NCBI GenBank assembly: GCA_016202545.1
Contig: JACQON010000030.1
Location: 33,599 to 97,598, forward strand
From: Chloroflexota bacterium
GTDB taxonomy: Bacteria; Chloroflexota; Dehalococcoidia; Dehalococcoidales; JACQON01
Direction of reading: 5' to 3'
DNA length: 64,000 bases
The notes beneath the pieces were generated by a model, which was not told where the DNA came from, did no database searches, and saw only the letters and a list, made by a program, of their open reading frames with translations. The first letter of the stretch is position 1. Each line of letters starts with the position of its first letter. Both the position numbers and the translations under genes were made by a program. Below are positions 1 through 44,325 of this stretch, piece by piece.

Positions 1-896
1 GCGGCACGCACCAGATACCCCACGGCCAGGGACTTGTACCGGCCGAAACGGTCTGAGGCCCAGCCGCCGAAGATTGACCCCACCGCGCCAGCACCCCCCA
101 CCAGCCCCAGCGCGGTTGCCCCTTGCTGCGGTGAGAAGTTGTGCTCCAGGGCGATAGCCGGCAGGTGCCCCATGAGGAATAGCCCGGTGAAGCCACAGCC
201 GAAGTAAGTGACCATCAGCAGCCAGTAAGGCCCGGTCTTGGCTGCCTGGCGCACCTCGCTGCTGAAGATGAAGCCTTGCCTCAAACTGAGAGCCGGGTCG
301 CCTTCCCGGGCCTCGGGGGGCTCGCGCAAGAAGAACCATGATAATGGCAGCGCCGCCAGCAGCATTATGGCCGCCAGGCCGAGAAAGGCGCCCCGCCAGC
401 CCCAGTCGATAATCAAGTTTGCCGCCAGGGGGGAAAAGACCAGGGTACCCAGGGGTATGCCTGCCAGAATGTAGCCCAGGGCTCTCCCCCGCTGGTGCTT
501 AAACCAGCGGGCGACGAGGAGAGAGAATGGAGCCACGTTGAGCCCGCTGGAGGCGCCGCCTGCCAGCAGACCGTAGCCCAGCATAAGGTACCAGAAATCC
601 TGGGCCATGGCGGTGACGGCAAAGCCCAGGGACATCAGTATCACTGCCAGTATGATAGCCTTGCGCGGGCCTTTGTAGTCCATCAAAGCTCCGGTGACGG
701 GCTGCATGAGCCCCCAGATGACCATGTTCAGAGAAAAAGGCAAAATGGACTGTAAGCGGCTCAGATTGAAAGCTTCCTCCAGAGGAACAACGAAGACGCC
801 GTATGACATCCGGACGCCGTTGGCGATGAATCCCACCAGGGCGCCAATAGCCAGGATGAACCACGGGTTTATGTTTTTGCTGGCAGGCGGGTACAT
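1..896 (-). CDS. MFS transporter (oxalate/formate antiporter-like); the 3' end runs off the window
   Basis: My own minus-strand translation from the ATG at 896-894 reads MYPPASKNINPWFILAIGALVGFIANGVRMSYGVF... The frame stays open and hydrophobic to position 1. It is absent from the ORF track because it is open at the window edge. Confidence 0.7.
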   Translation of the reverse strand, partial: MYPPASKNINPWFILAIGALVGFIANGVRMSYGVFVVPLEEAFNLSRLQSILPFSLNMVIWGLMQPVTGALMDYKGPRKAIILAVILMSLGFAVTAMAQDFWYLMLGYGLLAGGASSGLNVAPFSLLVARWFKHQRGRALGYILAGIPLGTLVFSPLAANLIIDWGWRGAFLGLAAIMLLAALPLSWFFLREPPEAREGDPALSLRQGFIFSSEVRQAAKTGPYWLLMVTYFGCGFTGLFLMGHLPAIALEHNFSPQQGATALGLVGGAGAVGSIFGGWASDRFGRYKSLAVGYLVRA

Positions 897-962
897 AATG
901 GCCAATTATACACGGGCCTATCCTGCGGGTTCAACTCTAACCTACCCCGCAGCGAAGCGCGC

Positions 963-977
963 CTTTTGCGACAAAAG
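963..977. promoter_or_regulatory. Palindrome CTTTTG-cga-CAAAAG upstream of the hemerythrin cluster (candidate operator)
   Basis: Perfect 6-bp inverted repeat with a 3-nt spacer, about 85 nt upstream of the ATG at 1062, in the divergent MFS/hemerythrin intergenic region. Confidence 0.25.
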
Positions 978-1061
978 TCGTATACACCCAGTCCGGTTAT
1001 TGCTAAATTTGAAGTGTGAATCTTGGCTAAGCACGGCAAAAACCTGGAAAGGAGGACTTGA

Positions 1062-2078
1062 ATGGAGGCGGTCAAGACTATTGATGTCAAAGGACTGGGA
1101 CATGTTGAGAAGGAGGGCCTCATCTTCCCCGGCATCCAGCAGCTCACCGGCGGCCAGACACTGAGGATTATCGTCGAGTTTAACCCGCTGCCGCTGGTCT
1201 ACATGCTGAAGGCCCAGGGTGAGTGTGAGGTGTCCTATGAGAAGGAAGGGCCGGATGAGTGGATACTGAGGGTGAAAAAGGCGGCCGGCGAGGATGACAC
1301 CAAGCGGCAGTTCAGGGAAATGCTGGCGGAGTTGAAGGGCGGCCAGGTGTCCGAGGAGGCCAAGGAGAAGGCCAGGGACCTCTTGCAGTCGGTCGATGCC
1401 AAAAGCCTGGGCATCCTGGAGCAGGAGCTGATAAGGGAAGGCGTCTCCCATGAGGAAATCAGGAGCAGCCTGTGCGATATCCACCTCGATATTATGAGGG
1501 ACAGCCTGGTGGCCAAGAGGATAGAGGTGGCGGCGCCCCACCCGGTCAACACCCTGATGGAAGAGCACAAGGTCATCCTTGACCACCTGCACGAGCTTGG
1601 TGACCTGGTATGCAAGCTGCAGGAGACCGACTCTTTCGAAAGCATGGGGGAGGACCTGGACAAGCTGGAGCATATCGCCCACCACCTGATAGAGGCGGAG
1701 AGCCACCATCAGCGGGAAGAAGACGTGCTTTTCCCCCGGCTGGAGGCGCACGATATAACTGAGCCGCCATCAATCATGAAGATGGACCACGTGGAGTTCA
1801 GGAAGAGGAAGCAGGCGCTGTATCAACTGGCCCATAACGCCGGGGACTATGATTTCCAGGAGTTCAAGGCCAGGGCCGTTGAGCTTGGGGAATACCTGGC
1901 CAGAGAGCTTGACAGCCATATCTTCAAAGAGGACAATATCCTCTACCAGATTGCCCTTCAGATGTTGAGCGACGCGGAATGGGATGAAGTCAAGCGGGAG
2001 TGCGATAAAATAGGCTACTGCTGCTTCACCCCGGCGGACGTGCAGCCGAAGGAGCACCAGGCGGTCGGGGAGAAGTGA
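1062..2078 (+). CDS. DUF2249 / DUF438 / hemerythrin fusion protein with a Cys-rich C-terminus
   Basis: 338 aa. The N-terminus has a DUF2249-like pattern (LRIIVEFNPLPLVYML...WILRV). The middle is DUF438-like. Hemerythrin HHE-type motifs are present (MEEHKVI, HHQREEDVLFP, HIFKEDNILY). The tail reads CDKIGYCCF. RBS GGAAAGGAGG precedes the ATG. Confidence 0.75.
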   Translation: MEAVKTIDVKGLGHVEKEGLIFPGIQQLTGGQTLRIIVEFNPLPLVYMLKAQGECEVSYEKEGPDEWILRVKKAAGEDDTKRQFREMLAELKGGQVSEEAKEKARDLLQSVDAKSLGILEQELIREGVSHEEIRSSLCDIHLDIMRDSLVAKRIEVAAPHPVNTLMEEHKVILDHLHELGDLVCKLQETDSFESMGEDLDKLEHIAHHLIEAESHHQREEDVLFPRLEAHDITEPPSIMKMDHVEFRKRKQALYQLAHNAGDYDFQEFKARAVELGEYLARELDSHIFKEDNILYQIALQMLSDAEWDEVKRECDKIGYCCFTPADVQPKEHQAVGEK

Positions 2079-2205
2079 ACTGGGGCTGCCCCCATCAACT
2101 CAATGACTTCTGCCACAGGCTGAACAAGGGATGCCGGCCAGGAATAAAGGGCTGCATATTAAGCGGAAGCGTGGTATTCTTCAGTCCGGAAAAGGAGGAA
2201 ACGCT

Positions 2206-2436
2206 ATGGACAAGGTAGAAACCCTGGACCTGAGACAGATAATGCCCTTCGAGAGGCATGAGCGGATATTCGAGAAATGGGATGCGCTAAAGTCCGGGGA
2301 GACGTTGAAAATCATAAATGACCATGACCCCAAACCGCTGCACTACCAGTTTGAAGCCGAGTACAAAGACCACTACCAGTGGCAATACGAGCAAAGCGGG
2401 CCGAAGGACTGGATTGTAGACATTAAAAAGGTTTGA
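2206..2436 (+). CDS. DUF2249 domain protein (small SirA/TusA-like fold)
   Basis: 76 aa counted from the ATG at 2206, which is preceded by AAAGGAGG. The ORF-track start at 2131 lacks an RBS. Sequence: LDLRQIMPFERHERIFEKWDALKSGETLKIINDHDPKPLHYQFEAE...DWIVDIKK. Confidence 0.7.
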   Translation: MDKVETLDLRQIMPFERHERIFEKWDALKSGETLKIINDHDPKPLHYQFEAEYKDHYQWQYEQSGPKDWIVDIKKV

Positions 2437-2476
2437 CAGGCAACAGCTAAAAAGATACTTATCAGGAGGAACAGGC

Positions 2477-2974
2477 ATGCTTAACGGGAAAAGACCAACC
2501 GAGATACTGAAACAGGAACATAAGGATGTGCTCCAGCGCCTGGATTCCCTGGAGAAAGTCCTTGACCATCTGGACAGGAAAGAGGAGATTGCGGCTGAGC
2601 TGAAAGGACTGGCGTCCTTTTTCAATGTTGATTTCTGGGTTCACTTCGCCAAGGAGGAAGACGCCCTCTTCCCCGAGATTGAGAAGTTCATTCCCAGGAA
2701 CAGCGGCCCTACCGGTATCATGCTCAGCGAACACGAAGACTTAAGAGGAATCAACGCCGAGCTTCAGCCGGCAATCCAGACTTACCTTGTCGACTCCGGC
2801 GGTCCGGAAGCGAAGCGCACCATACAGGGCCGCGGCCATCATTTCATTGAAGTGCTCAGAGACCACATCAACAAGGAAGATAACATCCTGTTCCGCATCG
2901 CCGATATGCATCTCGACCAGGCCCAGATAGAGCGAGTTGTCGTCCTTTTTGATAAAATAGAGAAGGGGAGGTAA
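2477..2974 (+). CDS. Hemerythrin (HHE cation-binding) domain protein
   Basis: 165 aa with motifs ILKQEHKDV, HFAKEEDALFPEIE, SEHEDL and HINKEDNILF. RBS AGGAGG lies upstream. Confidence 0.8.
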   Translation: MLNGKRPTEILKQEHKDVLQRLDSLEKVLDHLDRKEEIAAELKGLASFFNVDFWVHFAKEEDALFPEIEKFIPRNSGPTGIMLSEHEDLRGINAELQPAIQTYLVDSGGPEAKRTIQGRGHHFIEVLRDHINKEDNILFRIADMHLDQAQIERVVVLFDKIEKGR

Positions 2975-2977
2975 CCA

Positions 2978-3478
2978 ATGGCTAAAACTACACTGGACCC
3001 AATCGTTGAGTTCCGGGAAGACCACCGGAAAGTGCGGGATAGCCTGCTTGACCTGGCCAGCGCCGCTGAGGCGGGGGACTTGGCCAGGGCCAGGGACATC
3101 CTGGGGAGAATAGATACTATGGTAGGGCCTCATTTCCGCTACGAGGAAGAGACCCTGTACCCTACCCTGAAGGAGTTCCTGGGCGACTACGTAGACAGCC
3201 TCATCAAGGAGCATGACGGGGCGATAGATACCGCCAGAGTCGCGGCTAAGCTGCTGTCCCAGCCTTCTCTGTCTGCGGAGGAAGGCAAAGCGGTGGCCAA
3301 AGCAGCCAGGGCGCTTCTGGTGCACGTCAGCAACTGCGACGGGCTGAACATACTGACCGAGCGGCTGTCAAAGGAGAAGCTGGCAGGGCTGGGCAAGCAC
3401 TTTGCCCGGTCTCGCGCTGAAGGCATATCCCTGCTCCGCTGGGCAGACACCATTCGAAAAGGACTAGCTGCAAGTTGA
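2978..3478 (+). CDS. Hemerythrin-like domain protein
   Basis: 166 aa with motifs FREDHRKVRD, HFRYEEETLYP and IKEHDG. It starts 4 nt after the previous stop, with GGGGAGG upstream. Confidence 0.65.
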   Translation: MAKTTLDPIVEFREDHRKVRDSLLDLASAAEAGDLARARDILGRIDTMVGPHFRYEEETLYPTLKEFLGDYVDSLIKEHDGAIDTARVAAKLLSQPSLSAEEGKAVAKAARALLVHVSNCDGLNILTERLSKEKLAGLGKHFARSRAEGISLLRWADTIRKGLAAS

Positions 3479-3903
3479 CCGCAGGAGCGTCTCCGGGAAA
3501 AGAGCGGGTGGCCGTAGTCCTTCACAGCGGCTCCTATGACCGCGCCTCTTACGCGCTGTCCATTGCCACCGTGGCCCTGGCCAGCGGCATGGAAGCGCAT
3601 ATATTGCTCACCTTCGACGGCCTGAGAAGGTTCACCAGGGGACATCTGACCGACATCGGCGAGGAGACCCCGCAAAGCCTGAGGGCCAACATCGAACGCG
3701 GGCTGAAATCAGGCGGTATTCAGTCGCTGGAGGACCAGCTAGCCGGCGCTAAGAAAATGGGACTCAAGCTCTATGCCTGTCCTAACGCCATGGCGGCGCT
3801 GAACATCGGTCTGAAAGACCTGCGTGAGGAGATAGACCAGATTATGGGGCTGGCTGCTTTCCTGGAGCTGGCCCGGACTGCCGCCATCAACTGGTACATC
3901 TGA
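3475..3903 (+). CDS. DsrE/DsrF-like (peroxiredoxin-family COG2210-like) protein
   Basis: 142 aa: VAVVLHSGSYDRASYALSIATVALASGMEAHILLTFDGL...LKLYACPNAM. The TTG start overlaps the upstream stop (TTGA). Confidence 0.65.
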   Translation: MTAGASPGKERVAVVLHSGSYDRASYALSIATVALASGMEAHILLTFDGLRRFTRGHLTDIGEETPQSLRANIERGLKSGGIQSLEDQLAGAKKMGLKLYACPNAMAALNIGLKDLREEIDQIMGLAAFLELARTAAINWYI

Positions 3904-4008
3904 TATTATGGCCCGCTACGCATCATAATAGCGCAACCTGATGGAAGGAGAGGAACCATAACTACCCTATTCGAAAGACTTGACGGCAAAAAGGCCAGAG
4001 ACCTGCGG

Positions 4009-4332
4009 GTGCTCAGCGATTTCATCGCCGTCTTTTGCCGTGAGAAGCACCAGGCTGAGTCCAGGGAAGCCTTTCCCATCAAGGACGAAAGACTGCGCCA
4101 GGCCATCGGCGATAAGGAGATGATGCTGTGCCCGGACTGCACCCGGCTATTCAGCCACGGCACCGCCAAGCTGCTTTTGTGCCCGTATGACCCCAAGCCG
4201 ATGTGCAAGAAGTGTGAGACCCACTGCTATGCGCCCGGTTACCGGGAAAAGATACGCGAAGTAATGAAATTCTCCGGCATGTACCTGATGAAACACGGCC
4301 GGATGGACCTGATGCTCCATTACTTCTTTTAA
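4009..4332 (+). CDS. Nitrous-oxide-stimulated promoter family protein (YgbA-like)
   Basis: 107 aa with a Cys pattern: FCREKH...CPDC...CPYDPKPMCKKCETHCY. The true start is uncertain, because the frame is open upstream to about 3919 without an ATG. Confidence 0.7.
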   Translation: MLSDFIAVFCREKHQAESREAFPIKDERLRQAIGDKEMMLCPDCTRLFSHGTAKLLLCPYDPKPMCKKCETHCYAPGYREKIREVMKFSGMYLMKHGRMDLMLHYFF

Positions 4333-4337
4333 AGGCG

Positions 4338-4841
4338 ATGAGTGACATTAAGACGGCGTTGATGGGGGCGATGACGGCCTACTTCAACGACGATGCCAGA
4401 AGGATAAACCACGCCCGCAGGGTGACCGGATACGCCGAGGAGCTGTTGAAGCGGGAGGGAGGCGACTATCCGGTGGTCATCGCCGCCGCCGTGCTCCATG
4501 ACATAGGCATCCACCAGGCTGAGAGGAAATACGGCAGCGCCAGCGGCCAGTACCAGGAGAAAGAGGGACCGCCCATCGCCCGGGGCATCCTGATCGGGCT
4601 GGGGTTTGAGCTGGGGCAAATCGAGGAAATCTGCAATATCATCGCCCACCACCATAGCCCGGGCAAGGTGAACACCGGGAATTTTGCCCTGCTCTACGAT
4701 GCCGACTGGCTGGTGAATCTGCAGGACGAGTATGACATCCGGGACAGGGGCAAGCTGAGCGGCATCATCGACCGGGTGTTCCTGACCGAGAGCGGCAAGG
4801 CCCTGGCCAGGCAAATCTACCTGTCAACCCCGGACGGCTAA
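4338..4841 (+). CDS. HD domain metal-dependent phosphohydrolase
   Basis: 167 aa with INHARRV...AAAVLHDIG...IIAHHH (H...HD...H pattern). Confidence 0.75.
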   Translation: MSDIKTALMGAMTAYFNDDARRINHARRVTGYAEELLKREGGDYPVVIAAAVLHDIGIHQAERKYGSASGQYQEKEGPPIARGILIGLGFELGQIEEICNIIAHHHSPGKVNTGNFALLYDADWLVNLQDEYDIRDRGKLSGIIDRVFLTESGKALARQIYLSTPDG

Positions 4842-4894
4842 TAGACCCGGCCCTTAAGCTCGCCAGGCGTCCGCTCTCTCGAGACCCACGGCGC

Positions 4895-5473
4895 TCACAA
4901 AGAAATGATTTTGCCGGCCTTGAGCAGGGTGTCGGCGATGATGAACATGTTGGATACCTCCCCCACCGCCACTTTATCGCTCAGCCCAAAACGTGCCAGG
5001 CATGTGCCGCAGGCCAGTACCGCGGCTCCCTGCTCCTCCAACTGGCGCAGCTCCCCCAGCACCGGTGAATCGCCGGTGGCCAGCTTTACTCCGTTGTTAA
5101 TCAGGAGGACGGTCTCGGGACTGGCGGCGAGGCCGCCGACGGTGTGAAGAAAGCTCTGCATGAGCAAGCTGCCCAGTTGCTGGTCATCGCCCCGCCCCAG
5201 CACATCCGAGGTGATGAATAAGACGATGCCGGTGGCAGGTGCCTTCTCCTTTGTTTGCCCGGCTTGCTGCTTCCTCAACGTCAGGTAAATGCCGTCCTGC
5301 CTGGTCTCAACGCTCACCTGGCAACCTTCGCTCTGGCCGAGCCGGGTCACGTTGTCCCGCGCCGCCTGGTTATCCACGATGGTGACGACCTCTGTGCCCT
5401 TCTCCAGGGCTTTGCGGGTAAGCATCACCGGCTGCGGGCAGGGTAAATTTCTGGCATCAACTATTGTAGCCAT
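4895..5473 (-). CDS. yedF: YedF-type protein (N-terminal SirA/TusA-like CPxP domain plus C-terminal DsrE-like domain)
   Basis: 192 aa: VDARNLPCPQPVMLTRKAL, then VLFITSDVLGRGD...ACGTCL. This architecture is typical of the selenium-metabolism protein YedF family. Confidence 0.7.
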   Translation of the reverse strand: MATIVDARNLPCPQPVMLTRKALEKGTEVVTIVDNQAARDNVTRLGQSEGCQVSVETRQDGIYLTLRKQQAGQTKEKAPATGIVLFITSDVLGRGDDQQLGSLLMQSFLHTVGGLAASPETVLLINNGVKLATGDSPVLGELRQLEEQGAAVLACGTCLARFGLSDKVAVGEVSNMFIIADTLLKAGKIISL

Positions 5474-5502
5474 TTGTATTCCTCCTTTGTTTACAGTCCC
5501 GT

Positions 5503-6924
5503 TTACAGAAAGATGATGCCCGCCAGGACACCTGCTGCGAAGACCAGGAGTCCCAGCACCAGGGCCACCCTCAGGCTCCGGAACGCACCGGCGATGACGA
5601 TAAGGCAGGGTATGCTTACCGCCGGTAGGGTCAGCAGCGCCGCCGCAGCCACGCCAGGAAGCCCCTGGCCTATCATCGTCCCCGCCACCGGGATTTCCGT
5701 CCAGGTGGGCACCATGAGCAGGGTGGCGAAGGCGGCGGTAACGGTCACGCCGGCCGCGGTGTTCCCGGAAGCTGGCATCGCCTGCACTATGTATACTGCC
5801 AGCGCCGAGCTGACGATAAAAAGGGGTATGATGACCCTGGCCAGCCTCCCCGCGGCACGCAGCCAGCTTGAGATAAGCACAGTGGGTGAATTCATGGGTA
5901 CTGAGGAGGGCAACTCAAAGTGAAACAGGCGGCTATAGGCATTAAGCGCCCTCGCCGATAGCGACAGCGCTCTGTCGTCGGGCGACGCCGGCGCTTCTGT
6001 CCCGCCTGCCCATCTGGCCGCCAGCAGAGAGACCCCGTAGGTTATGAAGACGCCCACTATGATGCCACCCAGAATCCTGAGCAGTGCAAACCTGACGGGC
6101 AGGAGGGCACTGGCCAGAATCAACGAGGTGATATTTAGCATCGGCGAGGAAACGGTGAAGGCCAGCGCCGAGCTCAAGGAGAAGCCCTTGCGGTACAGGG
6201 CCGCGCCTATGGGTGCGGCGCAGCAGGAGCAAAAAGGCTGCGGCAGGGCCATGGCCACGCCGGCCAGGTGAGAGGGAAAACCGGTGCCCTTCGGCCGGGG
6301 TATAAGCGTCCCTCCGGCGGCCAGGAAAAGACCCCCCAGCAGCAGGCCAAGCACAGTGGCGTGCCACACCACCAGAAGGTAGTTTATCCCCTCTGCCGCA
6401 GGCTGGAGCCATGCCGGAAAGGTGGCGATTGGCATTGCCCATCCCAGCCCCATCGTCCCCGGACCGGGCTTCATTTCACCGGCAACTATAATCCTCGATG
6501 CCGGGACTCCCCGGTAGGTGAACAGGTCTATGACCAGGATGGCGCCAATGGCTATCGCCAGAACTCTGGTCAGGGCGCTGAGGTCCGTCCCTCCTTCTTT
6601 GAGGCCTCGCTCCAGCCGTGCCAGATATTTATAGCTCATCCACAGGCCCAGGCCACTGACCAAAAGCAGTGGCAGGTGGAGCAGGTCAAGGTTGAGCAAC
6701 GTTGAAGGCGCTCCCACTTTGAGGTAATCGGAAAACAGGAACCCTCGCCTTATATCCACCACCGTCAACAGGAGAAGGACGAGAAAAGCGAGGAAGAGAG
6801 CAAAGCTGATATAGTAATTTGTCTTTGCCTTCGGTATTGCCTTGTTTACCATGCTATGCCAGGCTCCTTTCGGCTGTTTTGGGACAAAACAAAAAGCGAT
6901 GGTCGAAGAGCTCCTCTTCACCAT
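5503..6924 (-). CDS. Multi-pass permease (predicted-permease / ArsP_1-like family with a CSCC motif)
   Basis: 473 aa, highly hydrophobic, with the motif PQPFCSCCAAPIGAAL. The ATG at 6852 (MVNKAIPKAK...) is a plausible alternative start. The stop lies 30 nt upstream of the yedF start, so the two are probably an operon. Confidence 0.7.
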   Translation of the reverse strand: MVKRSSSTIAFCFVPKQPKGAWHSMVNKAIPKAKTNYYISFALFLAFLVLLLLTVVDIRRGFLFSDYLKVGAPSTLLNLDLLHLPLLLVSGLGLWMSYKYLARLERGLKEGGTDLSALTRVLAIAIGAILVIDLFTYRGVPASRIIVAGEMKPGPGTMGLGWAMPIATFPAWLQPAAEGINYLLVVWHATVLGLLLGGLFLAAGGTLIPRPKGTGFPSHLAGVAMALPQPFCSCCAAPIGAALYRKGFSLSSALAFTVSSPMLNITSLILASALLPVRFALLRILGGIIVGVFITYGVSLLAARWAGGTEAPASPDDRALSLSARALNAYSRLFHFELPSSVPMNSPTVLISSWLRAAGRLARVIIPLFIVSSALAVYIVQAMPASGNTAAGVTVTAAFATLLMVPTWTEIPVAGTMIGQGLPGVAAAALLTLPAVSIPCLIVIAGAFRSLRVALVLGLLVFAAGVLAGIIFL

Positions 6925-7321: not shown

Positions 7322-7356
7322 TATCCATGATAACGGCCAGAGAAAATGGGGGTGAC

Positions 7357-9417
7357 ATGGAGCGTTACGGACTGGACACTATTCGCAACGTTGTTCTGCT
7401 ATCCCATTCCGGGGCTGGCAAGACGTCTATCGGCGAAGCTATCCTGTTCACTGCCGGTGCCATTACCCGGCTGGGCAAAGTTGGCGATGGGACTACTACC
7501 TCGGACTATGACCCCGATGAAGTAAAGCGCGGCATGAGCATCAACCTGGCCCTGCTTCCCTCCCAGTGGCAGGGGACCAAGATTAACCTCATCGATACTC
7601 CCGGCTATCCCGACTTCGTCGGCGAGGTCAAGGCGGCAACGCGGGTCAGTGAAGGGGCCGTCATAGCGGTATGCGCCGCTTCGGGGGTTGAAGTTGGCAC
7701 TGAACAGGTCTGGGCATATAGCGGGGAGGCCAACCTCGCTCGCCTGGTCTTCGTCAATAAAATGGACCGCGAGAATGCTGATTTCCACCGGACTCTGGAG
7801 GCGCTCCGCTCCAGGCTTGGCCCCATGTGCATCCCGGTGCAGCTACCCGTGGGCGCTCACACCAGCTTCCAGGGGATAGTTGACCTGCTGGCCATGAAAT
7901 ATTATGCCGGCTCTCCACCCAGGGAAGCTGAGATGCCCTCGTCGCTGCAAGCCGAAGCCGGCTCCTTTCGGGAGAAACTGGTGGAGGCTGTAGCTGAGAT
8001 TGACGATAGGCTTCTGGAGAAGTACCTCGGCGGCGAAGAGCTCAGCCTTGACGAGCTTAAGGCGGGCCTGCGCCAGGGAGTAGCGACCGGGAAAGTAGTG
8101 CCGGTACTGGTTGGCTCGGCGCTGCAAAGCGCGGGGATTACGCTCCTGCTGGATATGGTGCGTGAGTATCTACCATCGCCCCGGGAGCGAGAGGTGGCCG
8201 TCGACAGCGGCTCCGGCGCGCAAGCGCTCAAGCCCGCCGAGGATGGCCCGCTGGCGGCCCTGGTGTTCAAGACCACCGCCGACCCCTATGTCGGCAAGCT
8301 CACCTATTTCAGGGTTTATAGCGGAGTTATTGACAGCAACTCTCAGGTATGGAACGCCACCAAAGGCGAGCCGGAACGCATAGGTCAGCTATTCATCATG
8401 AGGGGCAAAGCCCAGGAGCCAGTACCCCAGCTACGGGCGGGAGACATCGGGGCGGTGGCCAAATTGAATGTGACCGGGACCGGGGACACGCTGTGCAGCC
8501 GTGATAACCCGGTGAAGATAGTCCCGATGCAGTTCCCGGTTCCAGTCTTCAGTCAGGCGGTCCATCCCAGGACCAAGGTTGACGTGGACAAGATGGGGAC
8601 CGCGCTATCACGGCTGACCGAGGAAGGCCCCACCCTTTCGGTGCGCCGGGACCATGATACCAACGAGACCATCCTGTCAGGAATGGGGGAGACGCATCTC
8701 GATGTGGCGGCGGAAAAGATGCATCGAAAGTTCGGCGTGGCGGTGGAGATGAAGACCCCGCTGGTGCCGTATAAGGAGACCATTACCATAACAACCAGGG
8801 CCGAATATAAGCACAGGAAGCAAACCGGAGGGCACGGTCAATACGGGCATGTTTTCCTGGAGCTGGAGCCCCTGCCACGTAGCAGTGGCACCGAGTTTGC
8901 CGATAAGGTAGTGGGGGGCTCTGTCCCCAAAAACTACATTCCAGCCGTGGAGAAGGGGGTCAACGAAGCCTTGAGAGAGGGAGTCCTGGCCGGCTATCCG
9001 GTAGCAGATATGAGGGCAACGCTGTATGACGGCAGCTTCCACCCGGTGGACTCCTCAGAGATATGTTTCAAGATTGCCGGTGCGGGGGCGCTGAAGAAGG
9101 GTATGGCCCAGGCGCAACCGGTGCTGCTTGAGCCGATAATGAATATCAAGGTGACCGTGCCGGAGAACCTCACCGGCGATATCATCGGCGACCTCAACAC
9201 CAAGCGGGCCCGTTTGCATGGTATGAGCCCCAGCGATGGCCATAACGTCATTGAAGCTCAGGTGCCTCTGGCCGAGGTGTTGCGCTATGCCATAGACCTG
9301 CGGTCGCTGACCCAGGGGAGAGGCACCTTTACCATGGAGTTCAGCCACTATGAGGAGGCGCCGCCCCTGACCACTCAGAAGATTATCGCCGAAAAGCAGG
9401 CCGCCCAGAAGGCCTGA
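7357..9417 (+). CDS. Elongation factor G paralogue (EF-G2-like translational GTPase)
   Basis: G-domain motifs HSGAGKTS, DTPGYPDF and NKMD, plus full-length EF-G domains. The start is set at the ATG at 7357, which is preceded by GGGGGTGA. It is not in an rpsL-rpsG-fusA-tuf context. Confidence 0.85.
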   Translation: MERYGLDTIRNVVLLSHSGAGKTSIGEAILFTAGAITRLGKVGDGTTTSDYDPDEVKRGMSINLALLPSQWQGTKINLIDTPGYPDFVGEVKAATRVSEGAVIAVCAASGVEVGTEQVWAYSGEANLARLVFVNKMDRENADFHRTLEALRSRLGPMCIPVQLPVGAHTSFQGIVDLLAMKYYAGSPPREAEMPSSLQAEAGSFREKLVEAVAEIDDRLLEKYLGGEELSLDELKAGLRQGVATGKVVPVLVGSALQSAGITLLLDMVREYLPSPREREVAVDSGSGAQALKPAEDGPLAALVFKTTADPYVGKLTYFRVYSGVIDSNSQVWNATKGEPERIGQLFIMRGKAQEPVPQLRAGDIGAVAKLNVTGTGDTLCSRDNPVKIVPMQFPVPVFSQAVHPRTKVDVDKMGTALSRLTEEGPTLSVRRDHDTNETILSGMGETHLDVAAEKMHRKFGVAVEMKTPLVPYKETITITTRAEYKHRKQTGGHGQYGHVFLELEPLPRSSGTEFADKVVGGSVPKNYIPAVEKGVNEALREGVLAGYPVADMRATLYDGSFHPVDSSEICFKIAGAGALKKGMAQAQPVLLEPIMNIKVTVPENLTGDIIGDLNTKRARLHGMSPSDGHNVIEAQVPLAEVLRYAIDLRSLTQGRGTFTMEFSHYEEAPPLTTQKIIAEKQAAQKA

Positions 9418-10721: not shown

Positions 10722-11657
10722 TCATCCCTCGTGAAAGTATTTCATGTATATATCGTCCAGGTTGAACTCCTGGATTTTCATCTGAATCAGAAGGAAATCG
10801 CTCTGCACCACCACTTTGGATATCTCAGCGCGCAGGTCTGAGTCAGTGATGACCATGAGCAGGTCGCCACTGGTCTTTACCTCTTTGACATCGGGAATCG
10901 CCTTGATGGTATCCACCAGGGCGGGGGTCGGCCGGCGTGTTTCAATCTCTATGCGGTAGCGGCCTCCAGCCAGTGCCTGCCTGCCCAGCTCATCTATGCT
11001 GCCCTGGACCACCAGCTTCCCTTTTGATAGTATGCCGATGCTGCTGCACACCCTCTGCACCTCATAGAGACGGTGCGAGCTCATGACTACAGTCGTCCCC
11101 ATTCCAGGCAGCTTGGCCATCAGGTCGAGTATCTGGTTGATGCCCTCGGGGTCTAGCCCGGCGGTGGGCTCGTCAAAGATGGCCAGCCTCGGCTTCTTAA
11201 CGAGCACATCGGCAATCCCCAGGCGCTGTTTCATGCCGCGGGAGAAGTTACCCACTTTTACGTCCGCCACCTGGGCGATGCCCACCCCCTCCAACACCTC
11301 ATCTATCCGGCGCCGGGCCTCGACATAGCCGATGGCGTTGAGCTCGGCGATAAAGTCCAGGTTCTCCCTGGCGGTGAGGCTCTCGTAGAAGCCGACTTTC
11401 TCCGGCATATATCCCACCTGGCGTTTTACCTCCAGGGGCTGCCTGGTGGGGTCCAACCCGCATACCCGGACGGTGCCCGCCACTGGCTCGGTCAGCCCGA
11501 GCAACATGAGGATAGTAGTCGTCTTGCCGGCGCCGTTGGGACCGAGCAGGCCAAACACTTCCCCCTCCTCAATGCTGAGGTTGAGGCTGTCCACTACAGT
11601 GGCGCTGTCGTACCTTTTGGTCAGGTTACAGGTCTCTACTACTATCTCTCTGCCCAT
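10722..11657 (-). CDS. ABC transporter ATP-binding protein
   Basis: Walker A GPNGAGKTT, signature FSRGMKQRL, and Walker B LAIFDEPTAGLD. Confidence 0.9.
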   Translation of the reverse strand: MGREIVVETCNLTKRYDSATVVDSLNLSIEEGEVFGLLGPNGAGKTTTILMLLGLTEPVAGTVRVCGLDPTRQPLEVKRQVGYMPEKVGFYESLTARENLDFIAELNAIGYVEARRRIDEVLEGVGIAQVADVKVGNFSRGMKQRLGIADVLVKKPRLAIFDEPTAGLDPEGINQILDLMAKLPGMGTTVVMSSHRLYEVQRVCSSIGILSKGKLVVQGSIDELGRQALAGGRYRIEIETRRPTPALVDTIKAIPDVKEVKTSGDLLMVITDSDLRAEISKVVVQSDFLLIQMKIQEFNLDDIYMKYFHEG

Positions 11658-11660
11658 GTT

Positions 11661-12524
11661 TTACCGTCTGCCGAACCGCCAGAAGACCACGCTCAAGCCA
11701 GCGATGACCACCAGTATGACTCCAACGCCGACCCAGCCCCAGACGGTGGGCGTCTCTACGGTCACCCTGATGTTAAGGTCGGTTGCCTGGGTCTGCTTGC
11801 CTGAAGCGGTGAGGGTGATGGAATAGTCCCCGGCGATTGTCCTTGCCGGCGGCTTGATATTCACATCCACCGTTCGAGAGTCAAGGGTCGGCAGGGAATC
11901 TACTTTATCAGGGGTGAATTTTATTATCCACCCTTCGGGCTTCTTCGATTGGAAGGAAATATCCTCAACGGCCGCCGAGCCCAGATTATCAAGCTTCAAC
12001 GAGAAGAAGTTGTCCTTGCCTGCGGCAGCCTTGGTATCATACCGCTCCGATGCGGGAGATAACCCCATCCTGTAAATGGCAACCACTACTGCGGTAAGGT
12101 CAATGCTCTGGCTAACGTCACCCGCCCTGGCTTGCAGGGTTAACTTATATTCCCCTGGCTCGGGTATAGAAAAAGAAGGCGGTGACGTTACCACTTTTAC
12201 ATCCTGGCCATAGGTCTTCAGGGGCTCAAGAACGATGCTGCGTATCCTCGTTTCACCGACGTCAGACGAGGTGATATAGGTAGTCCAGTTCTGGGGCCCG
12301 GTAACCAGCAGGTCAAAGGGGCGCACGCCAGGCCCCATGTACTTCAACTGCACCTCAAAGGTGAAGGTAAGCCCGGGGAAAGTAGCCTCTACCTTGGGAA
12401 ACTTGGGCACCAGCTCAACCGTTTCCTTGATGCCCGTTTCTTCCTGGGCCAGGGCTGGCTGATAAATTGCCATTATGCCTGTGGCTATGAGAAACAAGCA
12501 ACAGGCTACCCTTACGATTTTCAT
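11661..12524 (-). CDS. Secreted, C-terminally anchored beta-rich protein (NEW3/COG1470-like), first gene of the ABC-2 operon
   Basis: Signal peptide MKIVRVACCLFLIATGIMAIYQPALAQ, repeated beta-sandwich-like segments, and a C-terminal TM (VWGWVGVGVILVVIAGLSVVFW). Confidence 0.55.
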   Translation of the reverse strand: MKIVRVACCLFLIATGIMAIYQPALAQEETGIKETVELVPKFPKVEATFPGLTFTFEVQLKYMGPGVRPFDLLVTGPQNWTTYITSSDVGETRIRSIVLEPLKTYGQDVKVVTSPPSFSIPEPGEYKLTLQARAGDVSQSIDLTAVVVAIYRMGLSPASERYDTKAAAGKDNFFSLKLDNLGSAAVEDISFQSKKPEGWIIKFTPDKVDSLPTLDSRTVDVNIKPPARTIAGDYSITLTASGKQTQATDLNIRVTVETPTVWGWVGVGVILVVIAGLSVVFWRFGRR

Positions 12525-12595: not shown

Positions 12596-12810
12596 ACTTG
12601 TTCGTAAGAAATCGTTCAGTAACACTCTGCCATATAATTATTAAACACCCTTAAGGTTAGTGACGAGGTTTCCTTATCACATATTTCTGACCAAAATCAT
12701 AGCAGCCAAATGTTAAAATCCTGTTAAGACACCGATTAAACGGACGTCTTTGGCTGCTTTACCCCGGGAATGCAGCTTTGGTATATTCCCATAATATCAA
12801 GATTAGCGGC

Positions 12811-13809
12811 CTATTCCGACAGCAGTTGCTTGACCTTTTCCTGGAAGGCAGGCACTATCTTTTTCCAATCTCCGACCACGCCAAAGCGGGCTACCTTGAA
12901 GATGTTTGCCTCGGGGTCCTTGTTTATGGCCACGATGTTCTTGCAGCCGGAGCAGCCAGCCATGTGCTGGCTGGAGCCGGAGAGGGCAACCGCGATATAA
13001 AGGTCAGGGGCCACGATTTTCCCGGTTAGCCCTATCTGCATGACATCGGCCACCCAGCCGTTATCACAGGGGGGGCGGCTGGCGCCCACCGCTCCCTTGA
13101 GCAGTTTGGCCAGTGTCTCCAGTTGCTTGAAGCCTTCGCTGTTGCCTATGCCCCTGCCACCGGAGACCACCACCGTGGCATCCTCGAGCTTTATGCCGGT
13201 AACCTCCTCGGGAACCTTCTGTACCACCCTGGTCCTGACGGCTGAAGGGTCTATTCCAGCCTCGATGGGGATAACCTCACCCTGTCTGGAATCATCCCGC
13301 TGCGCCGCTGGCATGGCCTTGGACCTGACGGTGGCTATCTGCGGGTAGCACTCGCTGGTGAATACAGCCAGAGCATTGCCGCCGTAGACGGGCTTGGTCT
13401 GCAGTAGCTGCTTGGTGCCGGGGTCAACAGCCACCTCCACGCAGTCCGTGGCAGCGGTTGTCTTCAGCCTGAAGGCCAACCTGGGCGCCAGGTCGCGCCC
13501 CATGCTGGTCTGCCCCATAAGGACGGCGCGAGGCGCCGCCTGGGCGACCACCTTTTCCATGGCCGCGGTGTAAGAATCGGTCTGGTAGTCCTGGAGCAGC
13601 GGGGCGTCAACAACGTACACCTTGTCAGCACCCAGGGCGATGGCCTCCCCGGCCAGACCGCTTATATTGCTGCCTATCAATACGACACTAAGGCTCTCTC
13701 CCAGGTCACCGGCCAGCTTTCTGCCTCCGCCCAGTAGCTCGGCGGTGATGGCAGCTAACTTTCCGTCGGCGGCCTCGCCGCAGACCATGACCCCTTTATA
13801 TTCGGCCAT
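12811..13809 (-). CDS. etfA: Electron transfer flavoprotein subunit alpha
   Basis: 332 aa with the typical EtfA N-terminus and a C-terminal FAD-binding region (PDLYIAVALSGSSQHMAG). Confidence 0.9.
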   Translation of the reverse strand: MAEYKGVMVCGEAADGKLAAITAELLGGGRKLAGDLGESLSVVLIGSNISGLAGEAIALGADKVYVVDAPLLQDYQTDSYTAAMEKVVAQAAPRAVLMGQTSMGRDLAPRLAFRLKTTAATDCVEVAVDPGTKQLLQTKPVYGGNALAVFTSECYPQIATVRSKAMPAAQRDDSRQGEVIPIEAGIDPSAVRTRVVQKVPEEVTGIKLEDATVVVSGGRGIGNSEGFKQLETLAKLLKGAVGASRPPCDNGWVADVMQIGLTGKIVAPDLYIAVALSGSSQHMAGCSGCKNIVAINKDPEANIFKVARFGVVGDWKKIVPAFQEKVKQLLSE

Positions 13810-13897
13810 TGATGGTTATCCTCCTTAGCATGATAATCGGAATACGTTAGACCAGCGTTACAGGTTGCTCACCTGATACTCGAAATCGGCAGCCGGT

Positions 13898-14698
13898 TCA
13901 CAGTATCTTGGCCTCCCTGAGCTTCAAGGCCAGGTTGGCCGCCGCTTCCTCCGGGGTTTCTCCTTGTACGATGTCACACTTACCTTCGCGGACCGGCTGG
14001 AATAGCTTGAGCAAGTTGATGCGCCTGCCCTTAGCGCCAATCTGGGAAGGGTCGACTCCGATGTCGGCTGGCTTCCAGACGATAGGCTCCTTCTTTTTAG
14101 CCGCCATAATCCCCTTTATGGTGGCGTAGCGGGGCTCTCCAAGCTCATTGCTCACCGTGACCAGGCAGGGCAGGGGCGCTTCAATCACCTCATAGCCATC
14201 AGCCACCACCCGCTCTATCCTGACTTTGCCATCCAGCACCTCTATTTTCTTGGCCACGGTCACGCCGGGCAGGCCCAGTATCTCGGCGATGCCCGCACCT
14301 ACCTGTCCCGCATCCCAGTCGGCTGCCTGCCTACCGCAGAAGACGAGGTCATATGTGCCTATCTTCTTGATAGCCATCGCCAGCGCATAAGCCGTCGACC
14401 AGCTATCGCCATCGACAAAAGCCTCATCCTCCAGCAGGACGAGCTCGTCGGCGCCCATGGACAGCGGCTTTTTCACCACGTCACGCTGAAGGTTCGCTCC
14501 CATGCTGAGAACGGTGATTTTGCCGCCCTTGGCATCCTTAATCCTGAGCGCCGCCTCTACCGCCTGCTCATCAAAAGGGCTGATTACCGGCGGAACGTCC
14601 GGCGGCAATATCACCCTCTTGGCCGCAGGGTCAATCTTGAAGCTGGCCGGTGGTGCTTCCGGGTCAAGCACCTGCTTGACGCAGACAATCATGTTCAC
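13898..14698 (-). CDS. etfB: Electron transfer flavoprotein subunit beta
   Basis: 266 aa: MNMIVCVKQVLDPEAP...ISPFDEQAVEAALRIKD. Confidence 0.9.
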   Translation of the reverse strand: MNMIVCVKQVLDPEAPPASFKIDPAAKRVILPPDVPPVISPFDEQAVEAALRIKDAKGGKITVLSMGANLQRDVVKKPLSMGADELVLLEDEAFVDGDSWSTAYALAMAIKKIGTYDLVFCGRQAADWDAGQVGAGIAEILGLPGVTVAKKIEVLDGKVRIERVVADGYEVIEAPLPCLVTVSNELGEPRYATIKGIMAAKKKEPIVWKPADIGVDPSQIGAKGRRINLLKLFQPVREGKCDIVQGETPEEAAANLALKLREAKIL

Positions 14699-42048: not shown

Positions 42049-44325
42049 CTAGCCAAGCATGACCCGGGCATCAACCACCACATAGCCTTTGTCCAGGGCT
42101 TTCACCGGGTTGAGGTCAAGCTCGGCTATCTGCGGCAGGTCCTCCACCATGGCCGACACCCTGAGCAGTAGCTCCTCCAGCGCCTTTACATCACAGGGTT
42201 TGGCCCCGCGCCAGCCTTCCAGGAGCTGGTAGGCCTTCACCGAGCGCACCATCTCATGGGCATCCACATCGGTCAGGGGGTGAATGCGGAAGGTGACGTC
42301 CTTGAACAGTTCGGCGTAAATCCCGCCCAGGCCGAACATCATGAGCGGGCCGAAGGAGGGGTCCTGGGCCACGCCGACAATGGCCTCGACGCCGCCGGAT
42401 ATCATTTGCTGGACGGTGACCCCCTGCATCTCGTCGGCTTTCCCTATAGCGGCCATGCGCTCTCTGATTTTCAGAAAGGCTAGCTCCGCTTCTTCCCGCG
42501 AGCGGATATCGAGGATGACGCCGCCCACCTCGGTCTTGTGGACAATAGTCGGAGCGGCTAGCTTTATCGCCACCGGGAAGCCGACCTCACCGGCTGCCAT
42601 CACTGCTTCATCGGCCGTCCTGGCCTCCTTCGACCGCACCGTGCGGATGCCATAAGCGCCGAGGAGGTCAGCTACGGCGGCGCTGTCAAGCCATAAAGGT
42701 CGGGTTCTGCTGCGCTCCGTGGCCGATTTGACTGTCCGCTCACCCTTGCTCCGGTCAATGCCCTCCAGCGCCGGTATTGTCCCCTTTGGCCTTTTCCGCC
42801 ACTCGTTGTACTCGCAGGCGCTGGCCAGGGCGGCGGCGGTATCTTCGGGGAAGGCAAAGGAAGGGACGCAGCAATTTTCCCTTGAGCCGAGCTCGATAGA
42901 TGCCCCGCGCGAGCCCATAAAGGAGGCTATCAGCGTTTTACCCCGCTGGCGGAACTGCGGCGCCACTCCGCGGATGGCGGAGGCCACTGTCTCGGCGTTG
43001 GTCACTACCGGCGGGACGAAGATGACGATTACGATGTCCACCTTTTTATCTTCCGCCAGAAGCTTCATCGCCTGGCTGTAGTGCTCGGCAGCGGCTTCGG
43101 CGGTCATATCAACAGGGTTGGTCAGGCTGGCCCGGGGCAGCAAAAAAGCCCCCAGGCCAGAAACGGTGGCCTCAGAAAGGGAGGGCAATTCAAGGCCCCT
43201 GGCGGCACAGGCATCGGCGGTGAGAATTCCGGGGCCGCCACCGTTGGTGAGTATGGCTACCCTTCTTCCGGCGGGCACGGGCTGATGGACCAGAAGATTG
43301 GCCACATCGAACAGTTGCTCCAGGGTATCCACCCGGATTATGCCCGCCTGGGTGAAGAGAGCCTCGGAGGCAATCTCGGCGGTGGCCAGGGCTCCGGTGT
43401 GCGATGCTGCCGCCCTTGAACCGGCCGCGGTGCGCCCGCTTTTCACCGCCACCACCGGCTTGAACGGCGTTATGCCGCGGGCAATGCGGGCGAACCTTTT
43501 CGGGTTGCCGAAGGACTCCAGGTATAGCAATATCAGGCCGGTGGCCGGGTCGGCCGCCCAGTATTGCAGCAGGTCGTTGCTGGATACATCGGCCCGGTTG
43601 CCTATGCTGACGAAGGTGGACAGCCCGATATTGAGGTTCCTGGCATATTCCAGGATGGCCAGGCCGAGTGCGCCGCTTTGTGTGCCGAAAGCGATGTTGC
43701 CGGCGGGTGGGAAAAGAGGGGAAAACGTGGCGTTCATCTCCCCCTGGGGGCTGGTGTTGATTATCCCCATGCAGTTGGGGCCGATGAGGCGCATGCCGTA
43801 GTTGCGGATAGTCTCGAGCAGCTTTTGTTCCTTTTCTTTTCCCTCCGGGCCGCTTTCGGCAAAGCCGGCGGAGATGACCACCACGCCCCGCACCCCCTTC
43901 TGTCCGCACTCTTCCACCACGTGCTGGACTGTTTCCGCGGGGACGATGACTATGGCCAGGTCGACATCGCCCGGAACGTCAAGCACGGATGGATATGCCT
44001 TTACCGAGGCTATCACCTCAGCGCCGGGATTCACCGGATAGACAACGCCCTTAAAGCCGTGGAGCAGCAGGCTGCGGAACAGCATGTGGCCAATTGTGCC
44101 CGGCCTGCGGGAGGCCCCGATAACTGCTATGGAGCGGGCTTCAAAGAATGCTTTAAGCGAGGCTACGGTGGCAGCCGCCTCCGGCTCGGCCAGTATCTCG
44201 TCGACTCCGGCGGCCGGGGAGATGCCGCGGGCCATCCGGGGGCCATCATGCTTTCCCTCTTCAGCGGGTGGGGGATGACTATCAGCGAAGTCGCTCATCG
44301 GTCCGTCACCGGGCATGGCATTCAT
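42049..44325 (-). CDS. Acetate--CoA ligase (ADP-forming), fused alpha/beta subunits (CoA-binding, CoA-ligase and ATP-grasp domains)
   Basis: 758 aa: SIAVIGASRRPGTIGH..., with a C-terminal ATP-grasp region. The exact start is uncertain, because several Met residues occur in the first 40 codons. Confidence 0.8.
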   Translation of the reverse strand: MNAMPGDGPMSDFADSHPPPAEEGKHDGPRMARGISPAAGVDEILAEPEAAATVASLKAFFEARSIAVIGASRRPGTIGHMLFRSLLLHGFKGVVYPVNPGAEVIASVKAYPSVLDVPGDVDLAIVIVPAETVQHVVEECGQKGVRGVVVISAGFAESGPEGKEKEQKLLETIRNYGMRLIGPNCMGIINTSPQGEMNATFSPLFPPAGNIAFGTQSGALGLAILEYARNLNIGLSTFVSIGNRADVSSNDLLQYWAADPATGLILLYLESFGNPKRFARIARGITPFKPVVAVKSGRTAAGSRAAASHTGALATAEIASEALFTQAGIIRVDTLEQLFDVANLLVHQPVPAGRRVAILTNGGGPGILTADACAARGLELPSLSEATVSGLGAFLLPRASLTNPVDMTAEAAAEHYSQAMKLLAEDKKVDIVIVIFVPPVVTNAETVASAIRGVAPQFRQRGKTLIASFMGSRGASIELGSRENCCVPSFAFPEDTAAALASACEYNEWRKRPKGTIPALEGIDRSKGERTVKSATERSRTRPLWLDSAAVADLLGAYGIRTVRSKEARTADEAVMAAGEVGFPVAIKLAAPTIVHKTEVGGVILDIRSREEAELAFLKIRERMAAIGKADEMQGVTVQQMISGGVEAIVGVAQDPSFGPLMMFGLGGIYAELFKDVTFRIHPLTDVDAHEMVRSVKAYQLLEGWRGAKPCDVKALEELLLRVSAMVEDLPQIAELDLNPVKALDKGYVVVDARVMLG

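Follow-up and report, generated by a model that had tools for sequence, protein, structure and literature searches.

The question raised by the locus studied here is which of nine adjacent genes form a functional unit and what that unit would do. The genes, named g1 to g9, occupy positions 1062 to 6924 of a 64-kb stretch of contig JACQON010000030.1 (assembly GCA_016202545.1) from a Chloroflexota bacterium of the order Dehalococcoidales; the whole stretch is referred to as the window. They encode three hemerythrin-type proteins (g1, g3, and g4, the first also carrying DUF2249 and DUF438 domains), a second DUF2249 protein (g2), a DsrE-like protein (g5), a YgbA protein (g6), an HD-domain protein (g7), a YedF protein (g8), and a permease with a CSCC motif (g9). 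A preliminary description had merged all nine into one module. Comparison with related loci indicates that g1 to g7 very probably form a co-regulated, conserved unit, from which g8 and g9 are excluded.

Searches with profile hidden Markov models (HMMs) placed every Pfam assignment of g1 to g9 above its gathering score, so that the domain assignments of the preliminary description held against curated HMM cut-offs for 9/9 genes. The dense packing reported for the seven plus-strand genes was also borne out, with a 3-nt gap between g3 and g4, a 4-nt overlap of g4 and g5, and a 5-nt gap between g6 and g7. As for g8 and g9, they are convergent with the cluster, as the body of that description had it, and not divergent, as its title stated.

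Conservation was assessed by scanning one genome per species, which yielded 57 loci from about 20 phyla, archaea included (Hadarchaeota, Undinarchaeales, Thermoplasmata/Thermoplasmatota, and Nanohaloarchaea); loci of relatives are cited below by L numbers. Co-occurrence was counted only in loci with enough flanking sequence, and denominators therefore differ by feature. A g2 domain was fused or adjacent to g1 in 19/19 Chloroflexi loci, 22/28 loci of other bacteria, and 44/53 loci overall, and g3 was present in 14/16, 1/26, and 15/47, respectively. The combination g4+g5 occurred in 6 of 14 Chloroflexi loci and 2 of 18 loci of other bacteria (8/36 in all), while g6+g7 occurred in 9/14 and 0/18 (9/36 in all). 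All of g3 to g7 were found together in five loci (Chloroflexi 5/14, other bacteria 0/18, all 5/36), and thus the full gene set occurs only in Chloroflexi among the surveyed loci. Two pairs stood out. The g5 gene was in the same locus as g4 in 8/8 cases, usually adjacent to it, and in 9/36 loci overall, as L022 carries g5 without g4. In all nine Chloroflexi loci with g6, g7 accompanied it; outside the Chloroflexi, g6 was found without g7 in L036 and L041, and g7 without g6 in several loci. The order of the g4-g5 and g6-g7 pairs was permuted between loci (L005, L047). Overall, the view of the seven plus-strand genes as a real module was supported, being conserved at least in parts and in an arrangement that recurs in related loci.

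The same survey separated g8 and g9 from this unit. None of the 36 loci with enough flank carried either gene less than 10 kb from the cluster (Chloroflexi 0/14, other bacteria 0/18). In one metagenome-assembled genome (MAG), GCA_016190825, the contig with the permease is not the one with the hemerythrin cluster (L011), no YedF was present among the annotated neighbors of six g9 homologues, and within the window no operator of the kind described below precedes g9. Since g8 and g9 are absent from related loci and their homologues are unpaired, YedF and the permease are neighbors by position only. These six neighborhoods and the 57-locus survey rule out the two genes as a conserved pair or as part of the module, and the claim of a single module that includes them did not survive. 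In its own right, g8 is a bona fide YedF (TIGR03527, 188.3 bits against a cut-off of 110) with a CPxP-type Cys (LPCPQPV), and the translation of g9 contains PFCSCCAAP; its start is probably Met24 (at about 6855), because homologues are about 450 amino acids long. YedE is the usual partner of YedF, and g8 is here paired with an ArsP_1-family CSCC permease instead. Two further observations concern the permease family: in L059, a small DsrE gene overlaps the permease start, and in L063 a permease homologue lies 3 to 5 kb from selB and selA.

At the center of the unit is the protein encoded by g1 and g2. There were 869 homologues of g1, and the best 120 listed were 64 to 74% identical to it, the window's own entry aside. 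Most are about 405 amino acids long, with an additional 75 C-terminal residues. Because this C-terminus aligns with g2, g1 and g2 correspond to one DUF2249-DUF438-hemerythrin-DUF2249 protein that is split in the window by a 127-nt spacer (2079–2205). The g2 start is most likely ATG 2206, preceded by AAGGAGG, rather than 2131. Split g1/g2 forms recur in several Chloroflexi loci, and the split is therefore no sequencing artefact; in L001, an additional DUF2249 copy lies between the two parts. Across the survey, g1 identity was 59 to 74% in 48/57 loci, with a few distant relatives at 38 to 57%, and the full N-terminal architecture accounts for only about four clusters in a library clustered at 50% identity. 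The four-domain protein itself is 60 to 73% identical over about 20 phyla, archaea included. Such unusual uniformity over so wide a range of taxa implies that the protein is strongly constrained, has been transferred horizontally, or both.

Alignment of homologues showed that the hemerythrin ligands of g1 are invariant (H169; H215/H216 with E219/E220; H243; H286xxxE290), as are C138 in DUF438, the GYCCF motif that follows directly on the bundle (C320, C321), and, taking both DUF2249 domains of g1 and g2 together, H14, R345/H346, and N366-D-H-D369. An AlphaFold (AF2) model of a fused homologue had a mean predicted local distance difference test (pLDDT) score of 76.6. It comprised a hemerythrin four-helix bundle (pLDDT of about 90), two beta-alpha-beta-alpha-beta-beta domains corresponding to DUF2249, a four-helix DUF438 at lower confidence, and a disordered GYCCF loop. 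With Foldseek, the whole protein matched 3cax (PF0695), the hemerythrin domain had FBXL5 as its nearest fold match after 3cax, and the DUF2249 domains matched TusA (3lvj_C, TM score 0.67), HP1264 (0.71), and YeeD. A sequence search of the PDB with g2 returned chance matches only, and a DUF438 profile found no match there, YtfE included, so that no link between DUF438 and ScdA_N was shown.

These structural matches bear on the mechanism put forward in the preliminary description, in which sensing of O2 or NO is coupled to a persulfide or selenide relay that runs through DUF2249, DsrE, YedF, and the CSCC permease. The TusA fold of DUF2249 is in its favor, as are the membership of g5 in DsrE/DrsE_2 with an invariant Cys, the CPQP of g8 as a true YedF, the presence of TusA, DrsE_2, and a cysteine desulfurase-type gene a few kilobases off in L067, and a DsrE gene that precedes one permease homologue. 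However, the 76-residue stand-alone DUF2249 protein g2 contains no cysteine, the single Cys of the N-terminal DUF2249 of g1 is not conserved, and the position of the TusA CPxP Cys at the start of helix 1 is not kept in either domain. Modeling suggests that DUF2249 has a TusA-type fold in which His replaces Cys. Lacking the TusA cysteine, it would not be a persulfide carrier, and its domains are more likely to handle metals or ligands or to serve in docking than to carry sulfur. The SirA/TusA-like fold assigned earlier was therefore upheld by AF2 and Foldseek, and the carrier role was not. Together with the survey results for g8 and g9 (0/36 loci, separate contigs, six permease homologues without YedF, no operator), these findings largely refute a relay for YedF, the permease, and DUF2249, and we consider such a relay as a whole very unlikely.

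The hemerythrin domains of g1, g3, and g4 all keep the H/HxxxE/H/HxxxE(D) pattern (3/3), and the three are predicted to be di-iron proteins. The single-domain, hemerythrin-like g3 is the most RIC/YtfE-like of them, with YtfE as its best solved relative (E value 6e-5) and its HxxxE, H, and HxxxE motifs aligned to the YtfE ligand motifs. Homologues of g4 are 61 to 81% identical across phyla and share the invariant motif ARALLVHVSNCDGL (HVSNCDG); its weak PDB match is the DcrH hemerythrin. The partner gene g5 encodes invariant HS..Y.R and YAC motifs, the Cys of YAC being present in 9/9 sequences. It matched PF13686 (DrsE_2) at 53.6 bits (cut-off 25) but does not qualify as a DsrE2 equivalog (27 bits, cut-off 210). 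Among solved structures, it is closest to 2qs7 and to 3pnx, a putative sulfurtransferase DsrE. The g5 protein may serve g4 as a sulfur partner. As only g5 keeps an invariant Cys, any sulfur link of the unit comes down to this gene.

The second pair begins with g6, which is a member of the YgbA, or nitrous-oxide-stimulated promoter, family by both models (NF007714, 95.7 with a cut-off of 88; Pfam, 59.6 with a cut-off of 25) and carries a conserved Cys/His pattern of C..H, LCxxC, C, and CxxCxxHC. Its homologues share 17 N-terminal residues that are encoded in frame upstream of the listed start, GTG 4009 (TTLFERLDGKKARDLRVL). The upstream stretch (window 3943–4011) holds no ATG, GTG, or TTG usable as a start, and a strong Shine-Dalgarno sequence, GGAAGGAGAGG, lies 4 nt before ATA 3958, which is 51 nt upstream of the GTG. 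The true start is most likely this non-canonical ATA, to be explained by rare start-codon usage or by a miscalled base (ATA read for ATG). Its companion g7 is a small HD-domain protein whose nearest solved structure, 2pq7, is a predicted HD hydrolase, and it is likewise predicted to be a metal-dependent hydrolase. In L044 (Omnitrophota), a g7-homologous HD protein (11232–11957) is fused to an N-terminal Cys-rich domain of about 80 amino acids (CPGS...CPxC...CPxC...C..WC...C) that also forms the N-terminus of the first hemerythrin in Chloroflexi operons (e.g., L081/L066), with 54% identity between the two versions. This domain is a mobile metal-binding module common to the hemerythrin and HD partners, and g6-g7 can be regarded as a two-part unit. 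In enterobacteria, ygbA belongs to the NO-responsive NsrR regulon (Salmonella and Escherichia coli; PMC2884951, PMC1274295, PMC5320621).

To define the regulatory input, we turned to the divergent intergenic region upstream of g1, which contains a 16-bp palindrome of the CRP-type site form TNCGACAAAAGTCGTA that is predicted to bind a CRP/FNR-family activator. The spacing from this operator to an extended -10 element places the operator center near -41.5, the geometry of a class II CRP/FNR activator. By chance, CGACAAWAGTCG is expected about 0.26 times per window even with one mismatch allowed. A further operator-like site at 42540–42551 (GGACAATAGTCG, one mismatch) lies inside a 758-amino-acid minus-strand open reading frame (ORF; 42049–44325) and was set aside as probably due to chance. 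In 15 Chloroflexi loci, the palindrome TNCGAC-AAAA-GTCGTA occurred 24 times, where our own base-composition estimate gives a chance expectation of about 1. It was always upstream of module genes or of a ferredoxin operon, which is preceded by a second copy in relatives, and was typically in a divergent region adjoining a CRP/FNR-family regulator gene. The window shares this operator and promoter with 29 other sites. In 29/29 of these, the A-tract was oriented toward the downstream gene, with a -10-like hexamer (TAnnnT or nearly so) at a constant distance from the site; most of the 29 have an extended TGnTAnnnT that begins 18 to 19 nt past the operator. ORFs were called greedily by length in the survey and several CRP genes were overlooked, so that the co-occurrence fractions for the regulator are lower bounds. 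Searches of PDB and NCBIfam with the regulator gave generic CRP/FNR matches (DNR, 1e-17) and nothing diagnostic.

A metagenome scan for the operator plus -10 pattern returned 80 sites, and 77 metagenomic loci were compared. At least 40 of the 80 sites lie in front of module genes, namely Zn-ribbon-hemerythrin (25), FmdE-like (4), g1 (3), NifU (3), g2 (2), g3 (1), YgbA (1), and Fer4 (1). The same operator and -10 element precede the gene for methylenetetrahydrofolate reductase (MTHFR) in five metagenome loci plus L067. Targets seen once were cysteine synthase, a thioredoxin-like protein, a DUF362-ferredoxin, a class-V aminotransferase-like ORF identified by eye, and a second hemerythrin protein whose Cys-containing N-terminal region has no Pfam match.

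Outside the Chloroflexi, the operon is headed by a gene for a putative Rrf2 repressor with three Cys residues, and the promoter carries a different control element that is no less conserved, TTGACA and then a 23-bp palindrome, AATGATAC-N7-GTATCATT, that overlaps the -10 region (L018, L020, L023, L025, L032, L044, L052, L014, L026, and others). The sequence TGATAC-N7-GTATCA was present in 15 non-Chloroflexi relatives (13 survey loci and L064/L065), with a one-mismatch match in L142, and in some cases immediately preceded g1 without a neighboring Rrf2 gene; the window contains no copy. CRP/FNR and Rrf2 proteins are classic sensors of NO, O2, or Fe-S status. Two unrelated regulator families are thereby predicted to control the same core.

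Genes that recur beside this core in relatives provide additional context. The most frequent partner of the core protein is an FmdE-like protein of about 217 amino acids (weak FmdE match of 24 bits; motif GHSCPTVAGAY), encoded directly upstream of the g1 homologue in 26/49 loci of bacteria and archaea, usually abutting or overlapping it. Other recurrent neighbors are NifU, a DUF59/SufT-like protein, a nitroreductase-ferredoxin fusion, DUF488, a 72-amino-acid ferredoxin followed by two Cys-rich proteins without a Pfam match, and Zn-ribbon-hemerythrin as the first gene of the operon. A Prismane-family neighbor in three loci (L066, L067, L044) was considered as Hcp and rejected: hydroxylamine reductase models gave only 28 to 31 bits, and the protein is the catalytic subunit of a CooS-type CO dehydrogenase (TIGR01702, 657 bits with a cut-off of 478). 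A homologue search of the 64-kb window found none of the FmdE-like, CRP, Rrf2, NifU, Cys-rich, and CooS/Prismane proteins.

Based on the CooS and MTHFR genes, one may propose that the regulon answers CO or one-carbon (Wood-Ljungdahl) status through a CooA-like CO sensor, with the di-iron proteins protecting or maturing CO-handling, O2-labile metalloenzymes. The operons of L066 and L067 include CooS, which in L044 is encoded close to the operon, MTHFR follows the same operator and -10 element in about six loci, and CooA is a CRP-family class II activator. However, only a minority of loci carry CooS or MTHFR, neither of which the window encodes, and Fe-S or NO stress is a better fit for YgbA, the RIC-like hemerythrins, NifU, and the replacement by Rrf2. 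The CGAC-N4-GTCG half-site of the operator moreover follows FNR/HcpR1 spacing (PMC1274295). A response to CO or one-carbon status is, in our view, improbable.

Similarly, the genes might provide iron or oxygen buffering only, the hemerythrins storing or scavenging O2 or iron for a strict anaerobe but taking part in neither repair nor NO chemistry, and the accessory genes being unrelated passengers. Hemerythrin domains do bind O2 and iron, the fold match of the g1 domain to FBXL5 is to an iron/O2 sensor, and the weak match of g4 is to the hemerythrin of DcrH. Against this, two regulator families of the Fe-S/gas type are predicted to control the core. The g4-g5 and g6-g7 pairs recur, as do NifU/SufT-like genes within operons, which points to a coordinated pathway rather than to passengers. 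We regard buffering alone as highly improbable.

Instead, we favor, with moderate confidence, a reading of g1 to g7 as the operon of a RIC-like stress and repair regulon that responds to NO or O2 stress or to Fe-S damage. The theme of NO/O2 stress or Fe-S repair raised in the preliminary description fits the CRP/FNR or Rrf2 regulators, the NifU/SufT-like neighbors, YgbA, and the alignment of g3 with YtfE. RIC proteins are NO binders that catalyze a slow reduction of nitrite or NO and act as iron donors to IscU/IscS (PMC9268430, PMC8117158, PMC9052748). DUF2249 proteins have a link to nitrate respiration and denitrification, being either induced during these processes or necessary for them (PMC6282519, PMC11218638). 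Several results weigh against this reading. Scores against the RIC equivalogs TIGR03652 and NF008221 were 17.3 and 25.8 bits for g1 and 32 and 34 bits for g3, with cut-offs of 204.7 and 254, and Pfam found no ScdA_N domain in g1 or g3. Genes for hcp, norB/norVW, hmp, and flavodiiron proteins were not among recurrent neighbors or promoter targets in a search that was not exhaustive, and the Prismane-family neighbor in the three loci is CooS-type and not Hcp. As regulon members, MTHFR and CooS point to one-carbon/CO metabolism rather than NO. No CRP/FNR regulator gene is present within the 64-kb window, and the CRP-family regulator of relatives resembles HcpR or DNR at the family level only. By sequence alone, NO, O2, and CO cannot be told apart.

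Under the favored stress and repair reading, a CRP/FNR-family activator encoded outside the 64-kb window would bind TGCGACAAAAGTCGTA near -41.5 and start transcription of g1 to g7 from the class II promoter. The regulator would sense a diatomic gas or the resulting damage, with NO the most likely signal and O2 also considered. The hemerythrin-like proteins would then act as RIC/YtfE does, binding or turning over NO, nitrite, or O2 at the di-iron site, and may release iron to rebuild damaged Fe-S and other metal centers in cooperation with NifU or SufT-type scaffolds encoded in the operons of relatives; DsrE-like g5 may supply sulfur. A more far-reaching proposal is possible, but we hold it to be doubtful: that the g1+g2 protein is the founding member of a novel class of di-iron enzymes or iron donors, in which His-for-Cys TusA-fold domains handle iron or a small N- or O-ligand, under strong constraint and with horizontal spread over about 20 phyla of anoxic habitats. 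This class would be the main Chloroflexi target of an undescribed gas-sensing CRP/FNR regulon (TNCGAC-AAAA-GTCGTA) that also controls CooS and MTHFR and so links nitrosative, oxidative, or CO stress to one-carbon metabolism.

Dehalococcoidia and many uncultured subsurface anaerobes rely on O2- or NO-labile Fe-S, Ni-Fe-S, and corrinoid enzymes, and their survival of redox or nitrosative pulses is poorly understood. For these organisms, the analysis provides a concrete predicted regulon (operator, promoter geometry, and candidate regulator family), a very highly conserved four-domain predicted di-iron protein, and two protein pairs, hemerythrin with DsrE-like and YgbA with HD. It also places the orphan families DUF2249, DUF438, and YgbA in a common context. 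If RIC-like repair is true, the biology of repair of iron centers would extend from pathogens to environmental anaerobes and archaea; if the cluster is merely a further stress operon of known type, the value lies only in improved annotation.

Coordinates of the genes and sites are collected in the following table. On the upstream side, g1 shares the operator-bearing intergenic region with a major facilitator superfamily (MFS) transporter gene, homologues of which lie within a few kilobases of the cluster in L003 and L012; the transporter may or may not be co-regulated with the g1 operon. Past g9 lie housekeeping-type genes, namely an EF-G paralogue, ABC transporter genes, ETF, and PNPase.

Table. 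Positions of genes and sites, in window coordinates unless a related locus is named; scores are Pfam bits
Feature	Position	Strand	Remarks
MFS transporter gene	1–905	-	oxalate/formate or monocarboxylate type; divergent from g1
Operator TGCGACAAAAGTCGTA	967–982	+	16-bp palindrome (predicted site) in divergent intergenic region; site end 80 nt before g1 ATG
Extended -10, TGcTAAATT	1001–1009	+	18 nt after operator; predicted transcription start at about 1016
g1	1062–2078	+	DUF2249 53.0, DUF438 53.7, Hemerythrin 65.3
g2	2206–2436 (listed ORF from 2131)	+	DUF2249 95.8
g3	2477–2974	+	Hemerythrin 74.7
g4	2978–3478	+	Hemerythrin 48.6
g5	3475–3903	+	DrsE_2 53.6, DsrE 29.0
g6	4009–4332 as listed; probable extent 3958–4332	+	YgbA_NO 59.6
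g7	4338–4841	+	HD 35.7
g8 (YedF)	4895–5473	-	TusA 51.1, DsrE 26.5
g9 (permease)	5503–6924	-	ArsP_1 66.6
EF-G-family GTPase gene	7327–9417		696 amino acids; adjoins permease; presumably EF-G paralogue from context
CooS, L066	8048–10027		inside operon
CooS, L067	7260–9224		inside operon
CooS, L044	about 12786–14663		near operon

Compared with described systems, the cluster is a genuine variant, conserved and not previously described, that resembles nitrosative and oxidative stress regulons of the RIC, HcpR, and NsrR types. A literature search returned no paper on this gene combination, on the fused protein, or on the operator, and none on hemerythrin in Dehalococcoidia; the papers found for DUF438 were irrelevant, and for PF0695 there were only unrelated matches to the Pfam number. 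PF0695 of Pyrococcus furiosus (PDB 3cax) is a structural-genomics entry, a DUF438-type hemerythrin-PAS protein. It is the only solved structure with significant similarity to g1 (E value 1.5e-16 over residues 155–331; Foldseek E value 7e-6) and differs from it by a C-terminal PAS-like domain, the absence of DUF2249, and GYYKV in place of GYCCF.

The HcpR regulon of anaerobes controls hcp and a ferredoxin gene and includes hemerythrin genes among its members (PMC1274295). Likenesses to it are the CRP/FNR-family regulator without the FNR Cys cluster, divergent from its target in relatives (PMC1274295); the 5-N4-5 palindrome CGAC-N4-GTCG, which is near the HcpR1 consensus TTGACnnnnGTCAA (TTGAC-N4-GTCAA; Rodionov et al. 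2005, PMC1274295); and a small ferredoxin operon as a second target. An FNR-like class II palindrome beside a CRP/FNR gene was found in relatives, and the window has the operator and -10 element only. Unlike the HcpR regulon, no hcp was found among the targets here, the Prismane-family member being CooS, the operator differs at half-site position 2, and the regulator gave only a generic CRP/FNR match. Because hcp is lacking, the cluster is not demonstrably an HcpR regulon.

With the RIC/YtfE/ScdA/DnrN proteins, the cluster shares a four-helix hemerythrin-like bundle in which the HxxxE, H, and HxxxE motifs of g3 and YtfE align; the YtfE di-iron ligands are H84, H129, E133, H160, H204, and E208, and g1 and g4 show the same pattern as g3. 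An adjacent Cys-Cys outside the bundle is likewise common to both (GYCCF in g1, DfCCgG in RIC; PMC9268430), as is an association with NO/Fe-S-type regulators (Rrf2 or CRP/FNR family) and with Fe-S assembly (PMC9268430, PMC8117158). However, where RIC has ScdA_N, g1 has DUF438 and two TusA-fold DUF2249 domains (the second via g2); the Cys-Cys motif follows the bundle in g1 and precedes it in RIC; and three different hemerythrin proteins are encoded per operon here, with DsrE-like, YgbA, and HD partners. Since ScdA_N is missing and scores are 17 to 34 bits with cut-offs of 204 to 254, the cluster does not belong to the RIC family. Finally, DrpA/DrpB of Thermus thermophilus and haloarchaeal DUF2249 proteins share with the present domains conserved histidines and a connection, by genomic context or by expression, with nitrogen-oxide metabolism (PMC6282519, PMC11218638). 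The Thermus and haloarchaeal proteins stand alone or have the form DUF1858-DUF2249x2 and are encoded in the nar/nir/nor clusters of denitrifiers, whereas here DUF2249 flanks a DUF438-hemerythrin core in MAGs of non-denitrifying anaerobes.

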